64,000 bases of DNA, taken from positions 480,001 through 544,000 of the forward strand of contig CAXXLQ010000004.1 in assembly GCA_963668695.2 (NCBI GenBank), in the 5' to 3' direction. This document shows, piece after piece, positions 876 to 7,176 of the stretch (position 1 is its first letter; the number at the start of each line of letters is the position of its first letter). The notes below the pieces were generated by a model, which was given only the letters and a program-made list of their open reading frames with translations, had not been told where the DNA came from and made no database searches. A program made the translations under genes and the position numbers. The DNA is from Vicinamibacteria bacterium (GTDB lineage Bacteria > Acidobacteriota > Vicinamibacteria > Marinacidobacterales > Marinacidobacteraceae).

Positions 876-1769
876 CTATCCGATCGCGGCGGTCCCGACC
901 TTCGGCCCCTCAACCACCACCACCACCACCACCGACCAGTTCCGTCCCACCCCCGAACCCTCGCGGCGATAGGAGTGAAACGCCGGATGGCACCGGGTGC
1001 AGAGCCCAGTGTCCTCGATCGCCTCCTCCCGCAGTCCCGCGTCGAGGAGCTGGAGGCGGTTCGCGAGCACCAGGTCGAGATGGGGTCTACCGCGTGACAG
1101 ACGGGCCTCCGCATCCGGCCAGAGCGCGATCCGGCCGATGTCGTGCCCGTCTTCGGTGAACGCGGAAACGACTTCGGGACCTACCTCGAAACAGCAGGCA
1201 CGGATGGAGGGGCCGATGACGGCCGCGAGCCGCGAAGGAGGGGCGCCCGCCTCCGCGGCGAGCGCGCGGGCCGCCTTCCCGACAACCCGCACCAGCGTGC
1301 CCCTCCAGCCCGCGTGAACTCCCGCCACCGCGCCGGAGACGGGGTCCGCGAGCAACACCGGAACGCAATCGGCGGCCTTGATGGCGACGCCGGTGTTGGC
1401 GGAGCAGGCGATCAGCGCATCCCCCGGAGGTGGAGTCGGGTACCGCGCCTGATCGGCCGCTACCTGCACGCGGTCCCCGTGCACCTGCCGCAGGGAATGG
1501 AGGACATGCGCACCGGTGGCGTGTTCAAGGAGTTCCAAATCTCTATCGGCCTGGTCCCGGACTCCGAGAAACGGGGCGTCCGGCTGCCGGTTCCGTACTC
1601 GGCAGGTGAAGCCGTGGAGGGCGGGGAAGCGCGCGGAGACGAGCGCTTCGATCGGCTCTCCCGAAGTGGACGCGTTCGCGGCGCCGGACCCGAACTCCTG
1701 CCAACGGAAGCCGTCCGGAGGATCGGGAAGAGTGAACCGCGCCGGCAGGGCGTCTGCGTCAGACGTCAT
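876..1769 (-). CDS. pgeF: PgeF/YfiH peptidoglycan editing factor (laccase-domain purine nucleoside phosphorylase)
   Basis: Motifs QVHG, ADCVP, HAGWRG, IGPSI..CCFEVG, LCT, SYRR; downstream of ftsZ as in many dcw clusters. Confidence 0.9.
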   Translation of the reverse strand: MTSDADALPARFTLPDPPDGFRWQEFGSGAANASTSGEPIEALVSARFPALHGFTCRVRNRQPDAPFLGVRDQADRDLELLEHATGAHVLHSLRQVHGDRVQVAADQARYPTPPPGDALIACSANTGVAIKAADCVPVLLADPVSGAVAGVHAGWRGTLVRVVGKAARALAAEAGAPPSRLAAVIGPSIRACCFEVGPEVVSAFTEDGHDIGRIALWPDAEARLSRGRPHLDLVLANRLQLLDAGLREEAIEDTGLCTRCHPAFHSYRREGSGVGRNWSVVVVVVVEGPKVGTAAIG

Positions 1770-1882
1770 GTTGTCGAGCGCCGAGCTGGATGGCGGCAGG
1801 CACGTCCGTCATTGCGGGGAACACGGGCGGGAGGGCCATCCGTACGATCCAGGCCATGTCTCTCGCCCGCCTCCGGCGGGCT

Positions 1883-2030
1883 GTGCCGGTCTGGAGGCCC
1901 CCACCGGGAGGACTGGCCGGCGTTCCCTCCCGGCGGCACCACGGGGATGTTGAGCAGTGCGCAGTCTCGCTGCGCTTCGCGCAGCGGTGCCGGCCCCCGC
2001 CGGGAGAACTGGCCAGAGGTTGGCGTTCCC
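1883..2030. repeat. Two REP-like (family B) hairpin repeats, each carrying a 19-bp micro-insertion
   Basis: GTGCCGGTCTGGAGG[CCCCCACCGGGAGGACTGG]CCGGCGTTCCC and GTGCCGG[CCCCCGCCGGGAGAACTGG]CCAGAGGTTGGCGTTCCC. Confidence 0.75.
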
Positions 2031-2119
2031 CGGCCTGAATCCCGCAAGGGCAGACAGCAACGCGCCGTTCCGCGGCCCTGCGGGCCGCGGGTGCCGACCG
2101 GAGGTCTATACCCTTCGGA

Positions 2120-2335
2120 CTTCGTTTTCTGGGCCCTCCGGTGTGAGAGGCACCGAAGGGCCCTACTTCACCAACCTGTTAGCCGATCCGCCGGGAGCAA
2201 CCAACCGGAGGCATGTGTTTCGAACACCTACGCCGGACTGTGCCTCGACGGATCTTGGCCGTGATGGAACGCACGGTAGAAGGGCAGCGCCATCGAGCAG
2301 CCAGTATAGGCCCCAGCGAACATCACGGCGGCTGA
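2120..2335 (+). ncRNA. IS110 bridge RNA: 5' hairpin, target-binding loop and donor-binding loop
   Basis: Hairpin 2131-2163. Stem GATCCG/CGGATC (2185-2254) encloses ACCGGAGG (= left target) and ACGCCGGAC (= revcomp of right target). Stem GCCGTGATG/CATCACGGC (2258-2329) encloses GGTAGAAGG (= element right end) and GTATAGGC (approx. revcomp of element left end). Exact RNA ends are not known. Confidence 0.85.
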
Positions 2336-2374
2336 CTTCCCTCGGGGGGCTTCCCTCGGAAGGACAACAGCGCC

Positions 2375-3622
2375 ATGACATCTCCTTTTCTGTTTTTCGT
2401 CGGCATCGATTGGGGCTCGACGACCCACCATGGATGCCTGCTGGAGGCGAACGGTTCGGTTCGCGGCAGCCGGGCCTTTCCCCACGGCGGCGCGGGCCAG
2501 GCGGAGCTCGTCCGCTGGCTCCTGGACGAGACCGGGGCCGCCCCCGGGCAGCTCGCGGTCGCCATCGAGACGCCCCACGGGCCGGTCGTCGAGGGCTTGC
2601 TGGTCGCCGGCTTTGCGGTGTTCGCCATCGGTCCCGCCCAGATCCGCGGCTCCCGGCGCCGCTACGTCTCCTCCGGGGCGAAGGACGACCCCCGCGATGC
2701 CTGGATGCTCGCTCGCGCCCTCCGCGCCGACCCCGACCTCTTCCGACGGGTCGAACTCGAGAAGCCTCTCGTCCTCCAACTGCGCGAACGCACCCGGACC
2801 ATCAACGAACTCACCTGCCAGCGCACCCGGCTCTGCCACCAGATCCGCCAGCAGCTCTGGCGCTACTACCCCCAACTGCTCGCGATCCCCGACCTCCTCA
2901 ATCAACTCACCCACCCCTGGTTCCGAGAGCTCTGGAACAAGGCCAAAACCCCCGCACTCGCCCTCAAGCTGCGCGTCTCCACCCTCGCCAAACTCCTCAA
3001 AAAGCACGGCATCCGGCGACTGAACGCCAAAGGCCTGTGGGAGATCCTGCACGCCCCCGCGCTCACCGTCGCCCCCGGAGCCGCCGAGGCCGCCTGCCGC
3101 GCCCTCCAAAGCCTCTTCGCCCAGGCACACACCACCAACCAACTCCTCGCCCAGGCACGAGAAGACGTCCGTGAACTGCTGAAGGCCTTCTCCCAGGCCC
3201 ACCCCGACGACGAACGACCCGACGACATGACCCTCCTCCGCTCCCTCCCCGGTGTCGGGGGCTACGTCCTCAGCACCTTGTTCGCCGAAGCCTTCGACCT
3301 CTTCCAACGCCGCGACTACCCCGCCCTCCGCGCCCGCTCCGGAGTCGCCCCCGTCAGCATCCAGTCCGGCAATACCCGCTGGGAGATCCGCCGCCTCGCC
3401 GTCCAGCACGAACTCCGCAACGCTCTCTACCACTGGGCCCGCGTCGCCGCCGTCCACGATCCCCTCAGCAAAGCCCGCTACCGCGCCCTCCGCGCCCGCG
3501 GCCACTCCCACGGACGCGCCCTCCGCACCGTCGGCGACCGGCTCCTCGCCGTCGCCTGCGCCATGCTCAAAAACGGAACCCTCTACGACCCGAAGCTCTC
3601 CCGAGACAAGCTCGCCGCCTGA
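2375..3622 (+). CDS. IS110-family transposase / bridge recombinase
   Basis: N-terminal FVGIDWG, AIETP, KDDPRDA (DEDD RuvC-like fold); C-terminal SLPGVG and PVSIQSG catalytic-Ser region; GGAAGGA RBS. Confidence 0.95.
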   Translation: MTSPFLFFVGIDWGSTTHHGCLLEANGSVRGSRAFPHGGAGQAELVRWLLDETGAAPGQLAVAIETPHGPVVEGLLVAGFAVFAIGPAQIRGSRRRYVSSGAKDDPRDAWMLARALRADPDLFRRVELEKPLVLQLRERTRTINELTCQRTRLCHQIRQQLWRYYPQLLAIPDLLNQLTHPWFRELWNKAKTPALALKLRVSTLAKLLKKHGIRRLNAKGLWEILHAPALTVAPGAAEAACRALQSLFAQAHTTNQLLAQAREDVRELLKAFSQAHPDDERPDDMTLLRSLPGVGGYVLSTLFAEAFDLFQRRDYPALRARSGVAPVSIQSGNTRWEIRRLAVQHELRNALYHWARVAAVHDPLSKARYRALRARGHSHGRALRTVGDRLLAVACAMLKNGTLYDPKLSRDKLAA

Positions 3623-3861
3623 GCAACTCCTCCAAAGAAAAAAGGATCTTCAAGGTGAGCCGGTGGGAAGTGTGGGAAACGCGCCCCTCTCCGCCGCGGC
3701 CGGCGAACAACCGCCGCCGTGGTGCCGCGTTTTCCAAGTCCTGGGGAAATCGCTTCCCGCCCCGCCGGCCCCCGAAGCCCAAACCCACCTCCCATCCCGA
3801 TTTCCCCGGGACGGCACTTTCCACCGGATACCGAGCACCCGCCCGCAGCCCTCCTTCCCCC

Positions 3862-3867
3862 TTGACA
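3862..3867 (+). promoter_or_regulatory. Outward-facing -35 box at the IS110 right end (half of the circle-junction promoter)
   Basis: TTGACA 15 nt before the junction; after right-end/left-end joining it lies 17 nt from TACCCT (2109-2114). Confidence 0.75.
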
Positions 3868-3941
3868 AAAAGGTAGAAGGTCCGGCGTTCCCTGACCTTC
3901 GCGCCACGGTGCCGGCTGGAGGCGGGCGGTCCCTTGCCCCC

Positions 3942-5669
3942 CTACCGCCGGCGGTGGAGGTAGGCAGGCGTATCGAGGTCGCCCCACCGGTCGTCTCCCA
4001 CATGCCCGGGGAGGGACATGGGCTCATCGATTACCAGCCGTGAGCTGCCGGCGCCCGGAGCACTCGCGGCACTTTCCTGGCCCGCCCCGGGGTCGCTTCC
4101 CATCGCTTCCGCGCGGTCGGTCCCGGAAGCGGCGATGGTGGGACGGGTCCCGAGTTTCGGGATGGTCCGGCCGACTCTCACGGTAGCGGCCGCATCGGCC
4201 TGGGCCACCGGCCCGGACCGGCCGGACGCGGGGGTCGCTCCCCGGGCTCCAAACGTACCGGTCGCGCGGTTCGTGAAGCGGGCGAAGTCGTGAGGGGTCG
4301 CTCCCGCTCGGCTTCGGTCGGGGAAGCCGGTGGCAACCACCGTAACCTTGATCTCGCCCGTCTTGTCCATCGCCGGGTCGAGTGCGGTCCCGATCAGGAC
4401 GTTGTCTCCCGGTTCCGCGTCCGCGGATCCGTAGATTCCCGTCGCTTCGGGAGCCACCGCGTCGCGGACGACCTCAACGGCGCGCTGGACCTCGTTCAGC
4501 GTGAGGCTCTCACCGCCCGTTACGTTGACGATGATGCTCGACGCTCCCTTGATCGAGGTGTCCTCGAGCAACGGCGAAGAAATCGCCGCTTCGGTCGCTT
4601 CCTCGACGCGATTGTCGCCCGAGGCCTGTCCAATGCCCATCACGGCGTCGCCGCGGAGCCGCATGGCGGAACGAACGTCGGCAAAGTCCAGGTTGATCTC
4701 TCCCGGCACCTGGATCAGGTCGGAAATTCCCTGAACGGCCTGGCGCACCACATCGTCGGCACACCGGAACGCGTCCCGGATCTTGAGGTTCCCGTACACC
4801 TCCACGACCCGGTCGTTCGGGACGCAGATGAGGGTATCCACAAACTCGCGGAGTTCCCGGATCCCGTCGTTGGCGGTCGTCTTCCGGCGCCTGCCCTCGA
4901 CGGTCATCGGCTTGGTCGCCACCGCGACGCAGAGGGCCTTGATTTCCTGGACCACGCAGGCGATCACCGGCGCCGCGCCGGTGCCGGTGCCACCTCCCTC
5001 ACCCACGGTGATGAAGACCATGTCGGCGCCCGCCAGCGCGTCGATGAGCAGGTTGATGTCGTCGCGCGCCGCCGACCTGCCGACTTCCGGATCGCCGCCG
5101 CAGCCGAGCCCGCCGGTGCGCTCGCTTCCCAATTGAATCTTCACCGGGGCCTTTGACAGTTCGAGAACCTGAGCGTCGGTGTTCGCGGCAATGAACTCCA
5201 CTCCGGTCACCCCGGCCTCGATCATCCGGTTGACAGCGTTGCCACCGCCGCCGCCGACGCCAATGACCTTGATGACGGCCCGTCTTTCCTGCACGTCGTC
5301 GGGAGCCGCCGAGGGCGGTTCCGCCGTCACGGCGGGCGGGGCGCCGGTCGTGGACTCGACTTCCTCCGCTTCAGCCGGTGGCTTCGTGTTCGTGGCGGCC
5401 GGCTCCTCCACCGCCACGGATCGTTCGGCACGCTCCCAAGGCGCGGCTTCCGGCGTCGCCGCCTCCGGTGTCACCGCCTCCTCCGGGTCCGCAGACTCGT
5501 CCTTGGGGGCAGCGCCCGCGCTGGCAAAGAGCGCCGGCTGGACGGCGGGCGGGGACGCCGCGGCGGCCTCCGGCCGCGAGTCCTCGGGCGGCGAGGACTT
5601 CTCCGTTTTCGGGATCCCGGCTTCGGGATCGCTGGCCTTGGGCGTCGTTTCTTCGGCGAAGAAGATCAT
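3942..5669 (-). CDS. ftsZ: Cell division protein FtsZ with long low-complexity N-terminal extension
   Basis: IKVIGVGGGGGNAVNRM, GGGTGTG tubulin signature, INLDFAD, C-terminal LDTPAYLHR; AAGGAG RBS before ATG 5669. Confidence 0.95.
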   Translation of the reverse strand: MIFFAEETTPKASDPEAGIPKTEKSSPPEDSRPEAAAASPPAVQPALFASAGAAPKDESADPEEAVTPEAATPEAAPWERAERSVAVEEPAATNTKPPAEAEEVESTTGAPPAVTAEPPSAAPDDVQERRAVIKVIGVGGGGGNAVNRMIEAGVTGVEFIAANTDAQVLELSKAPVKIQLGSERTGGLGCGGDPEVGRSAARDDINLLIDALAGADMVFITVGEGGGTGTGAAPVIACVVQEIKALCVAVATKPMTVEGRRRKTTANDGIRELREFVDTLICVPNDRVVEVYGNLKIRDAFRCADDVVRQAVQGISDLIQVPGEINLDFADVRSAMRLRGDAVMGIGQASGDNRVEEATEAAISSPLLEDTSIKGASSIIVNVTGGESLTLNEVQRAVEVVRDAVAPEATGIYGSADAEPGDNVLIGTALDPAMDKTGEIKVTVVATGFPDRSRAGATPHDFARFTNRATGTFGARGATPASGRSGPVAQADAAATVRVGRTIPKLGTRPTIAASGTDRAEAMGSDPGAGQESAASAPGAGSSRLVIDEPMSLPGHVGDDRWGDLDTPAYLHRRR

Positions 5670-5709
5670 GGATTCGCTCCTTGTTCTTGGGGTGGCTGCA
5701 GGGCGCCCC

Positions 5710-5896
5710 GTAGCAGTTCGTGGATAGAGTGACGTGAGCACCGAGATCGGCGAGGCGCCTGGCTGACAAGGCGCGCGAGGGAGGAATACCCGGTGTATTT
5801 CGACCGACGCGCAACGATGAGCGACGCGAAGCGGTGCTGTTCAGCCAGGATGCATCGCCGGTCGAATGCCGCGTGACTCTGTTCACGGGCTGCTTC
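5710..5896. mobile_element. MITE family A copy (187 bp) between ftsA and ftsZ
   Basis: Imperfect TIRs CAGTTCGTGG...TCACGGGCTG; conserved core GGCTGACAAGGCGCGCGAGGGAGGAATACC..GTGTATTTCGACCGA. Confidence 0.85.
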
Positions 5897-5913: not shown

Positions 5914-7176
5914 TCATTGCGCCTTCTTGAGGACCCGCCTCAGGCCGTCGCCGATCGCGCGGCGAAGGGAACGGGTCGCGGGGGTTCGCTGGCGCTGGAC
6001 CAGGCCGTAGCGGCAAAGACCCATGGCGCAGGCGAAGTGGGGGCGCGTCGCCAGATCGCGCCGCCCGGTCAACTCCCGGGGACCACGGCTCTCGACGTCG
6101 GCGCCAAATACCAACCGGGCGACGTCGCTCAGCCCGTCGAGGTTGGCTCCCCCTCCGGTGAGCACCAAGCTACCCGGGATCTCCCGAAGCACGCGGCGCA
6201 ACTGGTCGCGGATCTTGGTGAAATCGCTCTCCGCGCGCCGCTGCAGGACATCGGCGAGCAGCCGGCGGCGCCACTGCTTGGGGTAGCCGCCACCCGAAAC
6301 CCGAATTTCGAAGTAGTCGTCTTCCGGAACCTTGTCCACGAGGGCAACCCCGTAGCGGCGCTTCGCGTGCTCGGCGTGGGCATGGGACGTCTTCAATCCG
6401 TAGGCAAGATCGCGCGTGTAGGCTCGCCCGCCACTCGGCATCAGGTCCGAATGCCACAGCGCGCCGCGCCGGAACACCGCGATGTCGGTGGTCATGGCTC
6501 CGATGTCCAGGAGGACGACCCCTCCCTGCCGTTCTTCCTCGTCCAGGACCGCGTAGCCGGTCGCGAGCGGGGCGGCCACCAGGCGCTCGACCCGGATACC
6601 GGCCCCATTCACCGCCTCTTCGAGGTTGCGCAACGTGAGGCGCGGGCAACTGACCAGATGGACGTAGGACTCGATCTTCTCCCCGGTCCAGCCCGTCGGA
6701 TCGTCGGTGGGATCGAGGTCGTCCACCCAGAACTCCTGGGGCAACGCGTGCAGAAGTTCGTACGGTGGGCGAAGCCAGGCCGTGCCGCCGTCCCGGGGCA
6801 CCGCCGCCATGACGGCCCGGTACACGTCGGACTCGCCGATCCGGCGGCGCGGCTCCAGGATGGAAATCGCGCCGGACGAGTTGATGCTGCGACGGGTCCT
6901 GCTGCCCACTGAGACGAAGGCCGACCCGACTTCCACACCTGCGGTCTGTTCGACCTCCTCGACCGCCTGACGCACGGCTTCGGTGACCCCTCCCTGCCGC
7001 ACGACTTCCCCGTACTGGACGGAATTCCGTGACTCCGCCTGCCCGACCGCCAATACCTCGAGCTGCGTAGCCTCCTCCGTCCCGGAGGGGTTGTCGGGCA
7101 CGCGGGCGAGCACGGTCCGCACGTGATCGGATCCGATATCGATGCCGCAGAGCAGATCCGTTGTCCTCGTCGTCAC
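5914..7176 (-). CDS. ftsA: Cell division protein FtsA
   Basis: GIDIGS, LLDIGAMTTDIAVF, VLTGGGANL actin-fold motifs; dcw position. Confidence 0.93.
   Translation of the reverse strand: MTTRTTDLLCGIDIGSDHVRTVLARVPDNPSGTEEATQLEVLAVGQAESRNSVQYGEVVRQGGVTEAVRQAVEEVEQTAGVEVGSAFVSVGSRTRRSINSSGAISILEPRRRIGESDVYRAVMAAVPRDGGTAWLRPPYELLHALPQEFWVDDLDPTDDPTGWTGEKIESYVHLVSCPRLTLRNLEEAVNGAGIRVERLVAAPLATGYAVLDEEERQGGVVLLDIGAMTTDIAVFRRGALWHSDLMPSGGRAYTRDLAYGLKTSHAHAEHAKRRYGVALVDKVPEDDYFEIRVSGGGYPKQWRRRLLADVLQRRAESDFTKIRDQLRRVLREIPGSLVLTGGGANLDGLSDVARLVFGADVESRGPRELTGRRDLATRPHFACAMGLCRYGLVQRQRTPATRSLRRAIGDGLRRVLKKAQ

Follow-up and report, generated by a model that had tools for sequence, protein, structure and literature searches.

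The window, the whole 64,000-nucleotide stretch of DNA that was analysed, carries an IS110-family element in the intergenic spacer that separates a Cu-oxidase_4 (YfiH-like) gene from ftsZ-ftsA. Coordinates of the element, its parts and its neighbours are collected in Table 1. Within its host genome (G000), it is an unremarkable insertion sequence that occupies a REP-like repeat. When the two flanks are joined, the 16-mer ACCGGAGGTCCGGCGT (ACGGAGG-type) results, and four uninterrupted copies of it are present in the same genome, for example at C4:807083-807098. Each of these empty sites is preceded by a short GC-rich hairpin and followed by TCC, which places the element in an imperfect palindrome of REP-like type. 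The pentamer AGGTC is present at both junctions and in the empty sites, so the boundaries can be shifted jointly by up to three bases to the left or two bases to the right. The orthologous spacer is free of the element in two related genomes, of which one has no repeat there and the other a different repeat variant. This genome holds one full copy of the element, and its other IS110-like genes are truncated.

Table 1. Features of the IS110-family element, its insertion site, its neighbours and the related solo left ends. Positions are those of the window unless a contig or locus is named.
Feature	Position	Strand	Basis or remarks
IS110-family element	2105..3880	+	1,776 bp; 4 uninterrupted empty sites in genome; flanks of related copies
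Left half of target (left flank)	2097..2104	+	identical to left target guide
Left-end tip (putative core TC plus right donor arm)	2105..2111	+	paired by right donor guide; homologous to CC plus T-G/A-T-A arm of relatives
5' stem-loop of RNA	2131..2163	+	fold; kept in family A
Internal pseudo-left-junction	2152..2166	+	11/15 bases equal 2097-2111, best such match inside element; footprints end here
Target-binding stem-loop	2185..2254	+	stem 2185-2190/2249-2254; guides 2204-2211, 2230-2238; inner hairpin 2215-2227; compensatory change in helices
Donor-binding stem-loop	2258..2329	+	stem 2258-2266/2321-2329; guides 2275-2283, 2304-2312; inner hairpin 2283-2302
Recombinase gene	2375..3622	+	415 aa; D12, E65, D105, D108, S331; Pfam domains; alignment of relatives
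TTGACA, candidate -35 box	3862..3867	+	read by eye; would face TACCCT (2109-2114) over circle junction, 17-nt spacing
Right-end tip (left donor arm)	3872..3880	+	identical to left donor guide; kept in 13/13 family rows
Putative core TC plus right half of target	3881..3888	+	paired by right target guide; same right flank in 13/13 family rows
Cu-oxidase_4 (YfiH-like) gene	876-1769	-	neighbour
ftsZ	3942-5741	-	neighbour; long N-terminal extension, 599 aa
ftsA	5914-7176	-	neighbour; end of cell-division cluster
Solo left end	G000 C4:3527773-3527828	-	repeat copy with both target halves
Solo left end	G000 C4:1498551-1498606	+	repeat copy with both target halves
Solo left end	G000 C4:about 788850-788913	+	repeat copy with both target halves
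Solo left end	L096:1501-1570 in G002		repeat copy with both target halves

The motif of this target variant occurs genome-wide in four exact copies, nine at no more than one mismatch and 27 at no more than two. The wider family of REP-like repeats in the host genome consists of a short GC hairpin and an imperfect palindrome followed by TCC, and exists in several variants. Two variants lie inside the window at about 1903-1930 and 1990-2030, and the repeat also flanks the element (1900-2104 and 3881-3940).

The recombinase matches both Pfam domains of the IS110 family: PF01548, the N-terminal, RuvC-like DEDD domain (4.1e-27; 95.3 bits against a cut-off of 29), and PF02371, the C-terminal Tnp domain (8e-13; 49 bits against a cut-off of 21.3). 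The residues D12, E65, D105, D108 and S331 are invariant across an alignment with 10-11 relatives of 38-52% identity, and the earlier description of the recombinase as intact, made from the DNA letters, is upheld by both observations. S331 aligns to the serine of the E-S-G motif of IS621 (chain 8wt6_A) in the PDB alignment. The pairwise HMMER alignment puts the IS621 E three residues off E65, and the equivalence of E65 therefore rests on the family alignment. The sole PDB matches are the ISCro4 transposase (E 2.6e-8) and the IS621 transposase (E 1.3e-7). Residues 8-402 match NCBIfam NF033542 (IS110 family RNA-guided transposase, equivalog) with 134.3 bits and an E-value of 5.5e-39, narrowly missing the cut-off of 140; by this yardstick, the predicted protein is a divergent member of IS110.

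The left end upstream of the recombinase gene contains four guide segments that match the flanks and ends of the element itself. In the first loop, ACCGGAGG, which forms the left flank at 2097-2104, is repeated as the left target guide at 2204-2211 (8/8), and the right target guide, ACGCCGGAC (2230-2238), matches 3880-3888 as its reverse complement without a mismatch (9/9), with base 2239 able to add a U-G pair. In the second loop, GGTAGAAGG is found both as the left donor guide (2275-2283) and at the right end of the element (3872-3880; 9/9), and the right donor guide GTATAGGC (2304-2311) matches the reverse complement of 2104-2111 if a single G-T wobble is allowed. This last pairing extends by one further base, C2312 with G3879, to give nine pairs in all including the wobble. 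The sequence-only reading had described the same four guides, 5' hairpin and two stem-loops, all of which were recovered when the region was read base by base, and it had likened them to the bridge RNA of IS621, an assignment that agrees with the architecture described by Durrant 2024 (PMC11208160).

The claimed helices are present in the minimum-free-energy structure of 2105-2374, which holds the 5' hairpin, both outer stems and the inner 5-bp hairpin at 2215-2227. The fold has a z-score of -2.55, and 1 of 200 shuffles folds equally well. Chance agreement of the guides was gauged with 20,000 dinucleotide-preserving shuffles of 2120-2374, scored for exact matches to four probes. At least eight matching bases to the left flank occurred in 1,574 shuffles, at least nine to the reverse complement of the right flank in 416, and at least nine to the right end in 44; none of the 20,000 brought together three or four probes at the observed lengths. 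The longest exact match of the fourth probe lies elsewhere, in another 8-mer at 2153-2160 that is complementary to 2111-2118, because the right donor guide contains the wobble. An Rfam search of 1800-4100 up to E = 1 returned no family, and its one chance match, to a CRISPR repeat (E 0.88), fell in the flank only.

The RNA scaffold is kept by distant relatives whose loops carry other letters. Family B (an alphaproteobacterial MAG; 47% amino acid identity, five copies) and family D (a Thermoanaerobaculia MAG; 39%, seven copies) have loop sequences that are very different and that fit, in each family, its own flanks and ends, in family D by way of U-G pairs. A covariance model, R1, was built from 15 sequences with three hand-drawn helices and searched against 99 sources, comprising the window, a single member from each genome-scan family and 80 metagenome loci; duplicate copies of families A (the close relatives described below), B and D were omitted, as were loci fetched for other purposes. 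The search gave 82 matches, all of them directly upstream of the recombinase gene and on its strand, with a single match in the window (2188-2336, 115 bits). Three loci (L036, L038 and L056) had no recognisable RNA. Across the 73 distinct rows, 93.0% of cells pair, compared with 30-48% for shifted partners, and changes on both sides are seen at 21 of 24 pairs, values reached by 0 of 500 shuffles. All nine pairs of the donor-loop outer stem changed on both sides in this set. The 73-row alignment is fitted to R1, and the fairer figure is thus that of the unfitted 15-sequence alignment, in which 89.6% of cells are paired and both partners have changed at 19 of 27 pairs (0/500 shuffles).

For the covariation test, the ends of each locus were located by its own loop-2 guides, with an exact match of at least 7 on the left and at least 8 on the right, and the loop-1 guides were compared with the 16 bases of flank so defined. 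Ends were located in this way for 57 of 82 loci on the left and 56 of 82 on the right. On the right side, at least 8 letters are shared by 38 of 52 distinct own pairs and by 42 of 2,392 cross pairs between unlike guides, two further rows being guide-less where the contig cut the RNA. The corresponding left-side counts, for at least 7 shared letters, are 21 of 57 own pairs and 40 of 3,062 cross pairs; on both sides the rows are related to one another, the flanks are located through the loop-2 guides, and near-constant letters across loci (four on the right, two on the left) raise all scores alike. Many of the own scores on the left are only 4-6 and represent mismatched or drifted guides. A smaller set that can be checked by hand gives the same picture of guides and flanks. 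The loop-2 guide search, allowing up to three mismatches, found no right end at L035, L039, L052, L054, L048 or L036, so these loci contribute no right-flank test. At L049 it gave a spurious match; when the downstream DNA of these loci was read, L049 alone showed a plausible right end, and a laxer threshold added three doubtful right ends with a score of 3. Covariation of guides with flanks among homologues had been proposed as a check in the sequence-only reading, and its outcome is positive.

The anatomy of the left end, the compensated scaffold and the tracking of flanks by guides together support the bridge-RNA reading. Very probably, the locus holds an intact element of the IS110 group that encodes a bridge RNA and a DEDD/Ser recombinase and would work as IS621 does. 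By the IS621 mechanism, the element would leave as a circle in which position 3880 abuts 2105. Its 270-nt left end would encode the bridge RNA, with a 5' hairpin followed by a target-binding and a donor-binding loop. Loop 2 would bind the circle junction and loop 1 an unoccupied repeat copy, both loops engaging the two strands in the same way, and a recombinase tetramer (DEDD/Ser) would swap strands at a 2-nt core. We infer that the RNA is produced, probably from a promoter at the circle junction, and that the protein binds it.

In IS621, a -35 box in the right end has been described to meet a -10-like box in the left end (PMC11208160, PMC11208158), and candidate counterparts of these boxes were read here by eye. 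Families A and D and the loci L037, L040 and L043 have a TGAC-containing hexamer 14-15 nt before the end of the core. A consensus scan of 1950-4000, which corresponds to the integrated copy, found no sigma-70-like promoter. Contigs from two metatranscriptome runs of one study (X15 and X17) include relatives that are 93-95% identical to 2125-2251, at depths of 453-2,060 (X15) and 134-178 (X17), and contigs over the recombinase gene, at 10-42 (X15) and 5-6 (X17). These depths hint at abundant left-end RNA in relatives, where contigs give no level, ends or strand and DNA carry-over is possible. The circle junction (3880 to 2105) was found in none of the contigs of four RNA-library runs, a kind of data that cannot prove absence, and the parts of the stretch left uncovered in runs X16 and X18 are uninformative.

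Close relatives, termed family A, were collected in a genome scan that covered one genome per species and gave 48 loci. The family comprises 12 further copies and one partial copy with 91-98% amino acid identity, which sit in other copies of the repeat in two related MAGs, both labelled Candidatus Marinacidobacterium (Acidobacteriota). All 13 family rows, the window included, have the same right tip and the same right flank, and their sequences diverge beyond. The left tip is present in 12 family copies and follows ACCGGAGG in ten and CCCAGAGG in two (L017 and L019). The left target guide of the sub-family L017-L020 reads ACCAGAGG, so that one guide letter is changed relative to ACCGGAGG, and the matching flank variant stands beside two of these four copies.

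The members of family A also differ in layout. In ten close relatives (L017-L025 and L028; about 926-1255), the left tip is separated from the 5' hairpin by some 330 additional bases, and a junction promoter would thus stand far from the RNA in these copies. The compact form is found in the window and in L016, and L026 is without the left tip. The host genome additionally contains a second, degenerate IS110 element at C4:about 310840-312010 (L007, L013, L014) and C1:137109-137957 (L008, L012). Its recombinase gene is without the N-terminal domain, and its bridge RNA is homologous, with loops that partly fit its own ends. The presence of this region on both C1 and C4 suggests that the assembly, for which contamination is estimated at 9.3%, contains a duplicate stretch. 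The RNA of the degenerate element is the most similar one found (72%), and CC stands directly ahead of its TATA arm.

We next consider where strands would be exchanged. The sequence-only reading placed the crossover inside AGGTC, which accords with the presence of these five bases at both junctions and in the empty sites. It also held that the core is unlike the CT of IS621, and this claim stands: AGGTC contains no CT, the core dinucleotide that marks the IS621-like subgroup, and as read from the letters the core is not CT whichever place in AGGTC it takes. In IS621, the T of the CT core is nearly invariant and is read by the protein backbone (Hiraizumi 2024, PMC11208158).

With modest confidence we place the core at TC (2105-2106 / 3881-3882). 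The dinucleotide before the T-G/A-T-A left-end arm is CC in 55 of 56 distinct relatives and TC in the family of this element only. In family B, CC is the exact shared core by empty sites. A search of the family B genome with its own left half-site gave, among the matches listed, 30 loci, of which five are occupied and 25 empty, and all 25 of the listed empty sites pass from the left half straight into the right half after CC. Homology to relatives thus points to TC as the putative core of the present element.

Guide coverage disagrees with homology on the place of the core and favours GG. The two left guides end on GG, directly ahead of TC. GG falls within all four guides, being paired at both bases by the right donor guide and at one by the right target guide, which may also form a U-G pair with the other. 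With the core at TC, the left target guide would pair with neither core base and the left donor guide with the second one only, whereas in IS621 all four guides include the core (Durrant 2024, PMC11208160). Exchange at GG (2103-2104 / 3879-3880) or GT instead of TC is therefore a serious contender, though not the reading we would choose. Against it, the dinucleotide shared by 55 of 56 relatives directly before the T-G/A-T-A arm corresponds to the TC place here, and the empty sites of family B establish the TC-equivalent place there. The closest RNA relative, in the same genome, likewise has CC directly before its TATA arm, and the right junctions of the solo-left-end footprints described below are the products expected of exchange at the TC place.

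A core at TC would be preceded by three bases that target and donor have in common. In IS621, handshake pairing of the guides with their own DNA locks the complex (Hiraizumi 2024, PMC11208158), and under that rule the identity predicts poor activity unless the clade differs. An alternative was considered and rejected in which the element keeps the exact register of the clade on the target side, so that the target would have CC and the donor CT. A mismatched core should segregate both ways, and 12 of 12 left and 13 of 13 right family junctions carry the same letters. A full-text literature search found no paper combining 'CC core' with IS110, and among the matches listed 'non-CT core' returned only Durrant 2024 and its preprint; the supplementary tables of Durrant 2024, which lie outside such a search, may list elements of this kind.

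Traces of past activity may be preserved as solo left ends of 56-57 nt that run from the left tip through the 5' hairpin, three in the host genome and one in a related genome. Two of these footprints, m3 and L096 (the latter in G002), match exactly the product predicted for an exchange between the internal pseudo-left-junction and the right junction at TC. The remaining two, m1 and m2, are longer by one base; at that position one has T and the other C. These sequences suggest aberrant cut-out at the internal pseudo-left junction. Partial circles that use one canonical boundary only have been reported in a preprint on expanded IS110 elements, which makes aberrant excision a reasonable reading of the footprints. 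That the footprints represent an older, independent repeat later entered by the element was rejected because there is no second left tip from 2161 onward.

The copy in the window might be an immobile relic that has kept its sequence and lost excision and insertion. The identical target and donor arms beside the core would fit such a state, since identity of this kind is inhibitory in IS621 (PMC11208158), as would the single full copy in the genome, the absence of the circle junction from the RNA-library contigs and the lack of a promoter in the scanned integrated copy. All 13 family rows, from different loci in three genomes, share this AGG-before-core identity, however, which implies that elements so arranged have moved repeatedly. 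The open frame, the intact catalytic residues and the empty orthologous site in two related genomes also speak against a relic, and we regard loss of mobility as improbable. It is highly implausible that the left end is instead a cis-acting mRNA leader for translation or stability with guide-like matches captured from the target repeat: it does lie directly upstream of the start codon in a genome rich in that repeat, but the target halves stand in opposite senses across the internal loop, unlike a copied repeat, the second loop matches the ends of the element and not the repeat, and relatives with unrelated targets keep the scaffold while their loop letters have changed to fit their own flanks.

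Read as a bridge-RNA element, the locus resembles IS621 of Escherichia coli in having its RNA in the left end upstream of a DEDD/Ser recombinase (PMC11208160, PMC11208158), with a 5' stem-loop followed by a target-binding and a donor-binding loop (PMC11208160). Again as described for IS621, the bottom strand is read by the 5' sides of the loops, which match the top strand in sequence, and the top strand by the 3' sides (PMC11208160). Both elements have a REP-type repeat as target, and inverted repeats are absent from IS621 and appear to be absent here. The proteins are distant (E 1.3e-7 to 8wt6_A) and differ in length, with 328 residues in IS621 and 415 here. IS621 has a CT core, whereas the bases shared by the junctions here contain no CT and the relatives have CC. 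Target and donor share two bases in IS621 and five in the present element. Right target guides of IS621-type loops are reported to pair over 4-7 bases, compared with nine here. The remark in the sequence-only reading that the right guides appear long therefore holds for the target guide, which pairs nine bases, but is not a novelty, as a long right target guide has already been reported in other orthologues (PMC11208160).

ISCro4 / IS622 (PDB 9t56; 10.1101/2025.05.14.653916) gives the best match in the PDB, and its RNA works by the same logic of two loops with handshake guides. It differs in its CT core, and in its engineered sites target and donor positions 6-7 were chosen to differ, whereas they are the same here (10.1101/2025.05.14.653916). 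ISPpu10 of Pseudomonas putida (10.64898/2026.03.19.712850) is likewise an IS110 element found in one conserved, stem-loop-forming REP, and its bridge RNA is made from a junction promoter; its core is CT and its host belongs to another phylum. The seekRNA of ISEc21 (Siddiquee 2024, PMC11187229), compared by description only, also derives from an upstream non-coding region and matches both target strands as a small RNA, but it goes under another name and a shorter RNA is sufficient.

Two-loop RNAs, REP targeting, junction promoters, longer guides and thousands of orthologues have all been published, so the mechanism is not new. Thousands of orthologues with predicted bridge RNAs are already in print (PMC11208160), and to call the element a candidate new programmable orthologue, as the sequence-only reading did, is fair. 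The departures from known systems are the distant protein, a core that is not CT, the 9-bp right target pairing and arms that are identical over three bases before the core. Tentatively, the element may belong to a clade of bridge recombinases whose crossover ends in C (mostly CC, here TC) and which tolerates identical arms beside the core, the 57-nt footprints then being natural double-strand cut-out scars between pseudo-left-junction and right junction. If so, enzymes with C-ending cores would reach target and donor sites that are closed to IS621 and ISCro4, and the footprints would bear on whether such elements leave by a cut-out or a copy-out route.

Bridge recombinases are under development as programmable tools for DNA insertion, inversion and excision, and both systems with solved structures use a core that ends in T. 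The element offers a natural, complete and readable system from an uncultured marine acidobacterium, with a protein near the limit of sequence search from IS621. Its target and donor, together with dozens of relatives in which guides and flanks can be compared, allow an immediate test of how far the IS621 rules apply, in particular those for core identity, guide length and handshake positions.

Two further hairpins were observed around the RNA. A terminator-like hairpin lies over the left junction (2098-2118, with a T-run to 2128), in which the left target half pairs with 2112-2118. Such a hairpin could stop transcription that enters from the flank; the terminator scan gives two such sites compared with 1.6 expected, so it may be due to chance. 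The second, a small hairpin at 2338-2368, stands before the start codon, and its CTTCC can pair with GGAAG of the likely ribosome-binding site.
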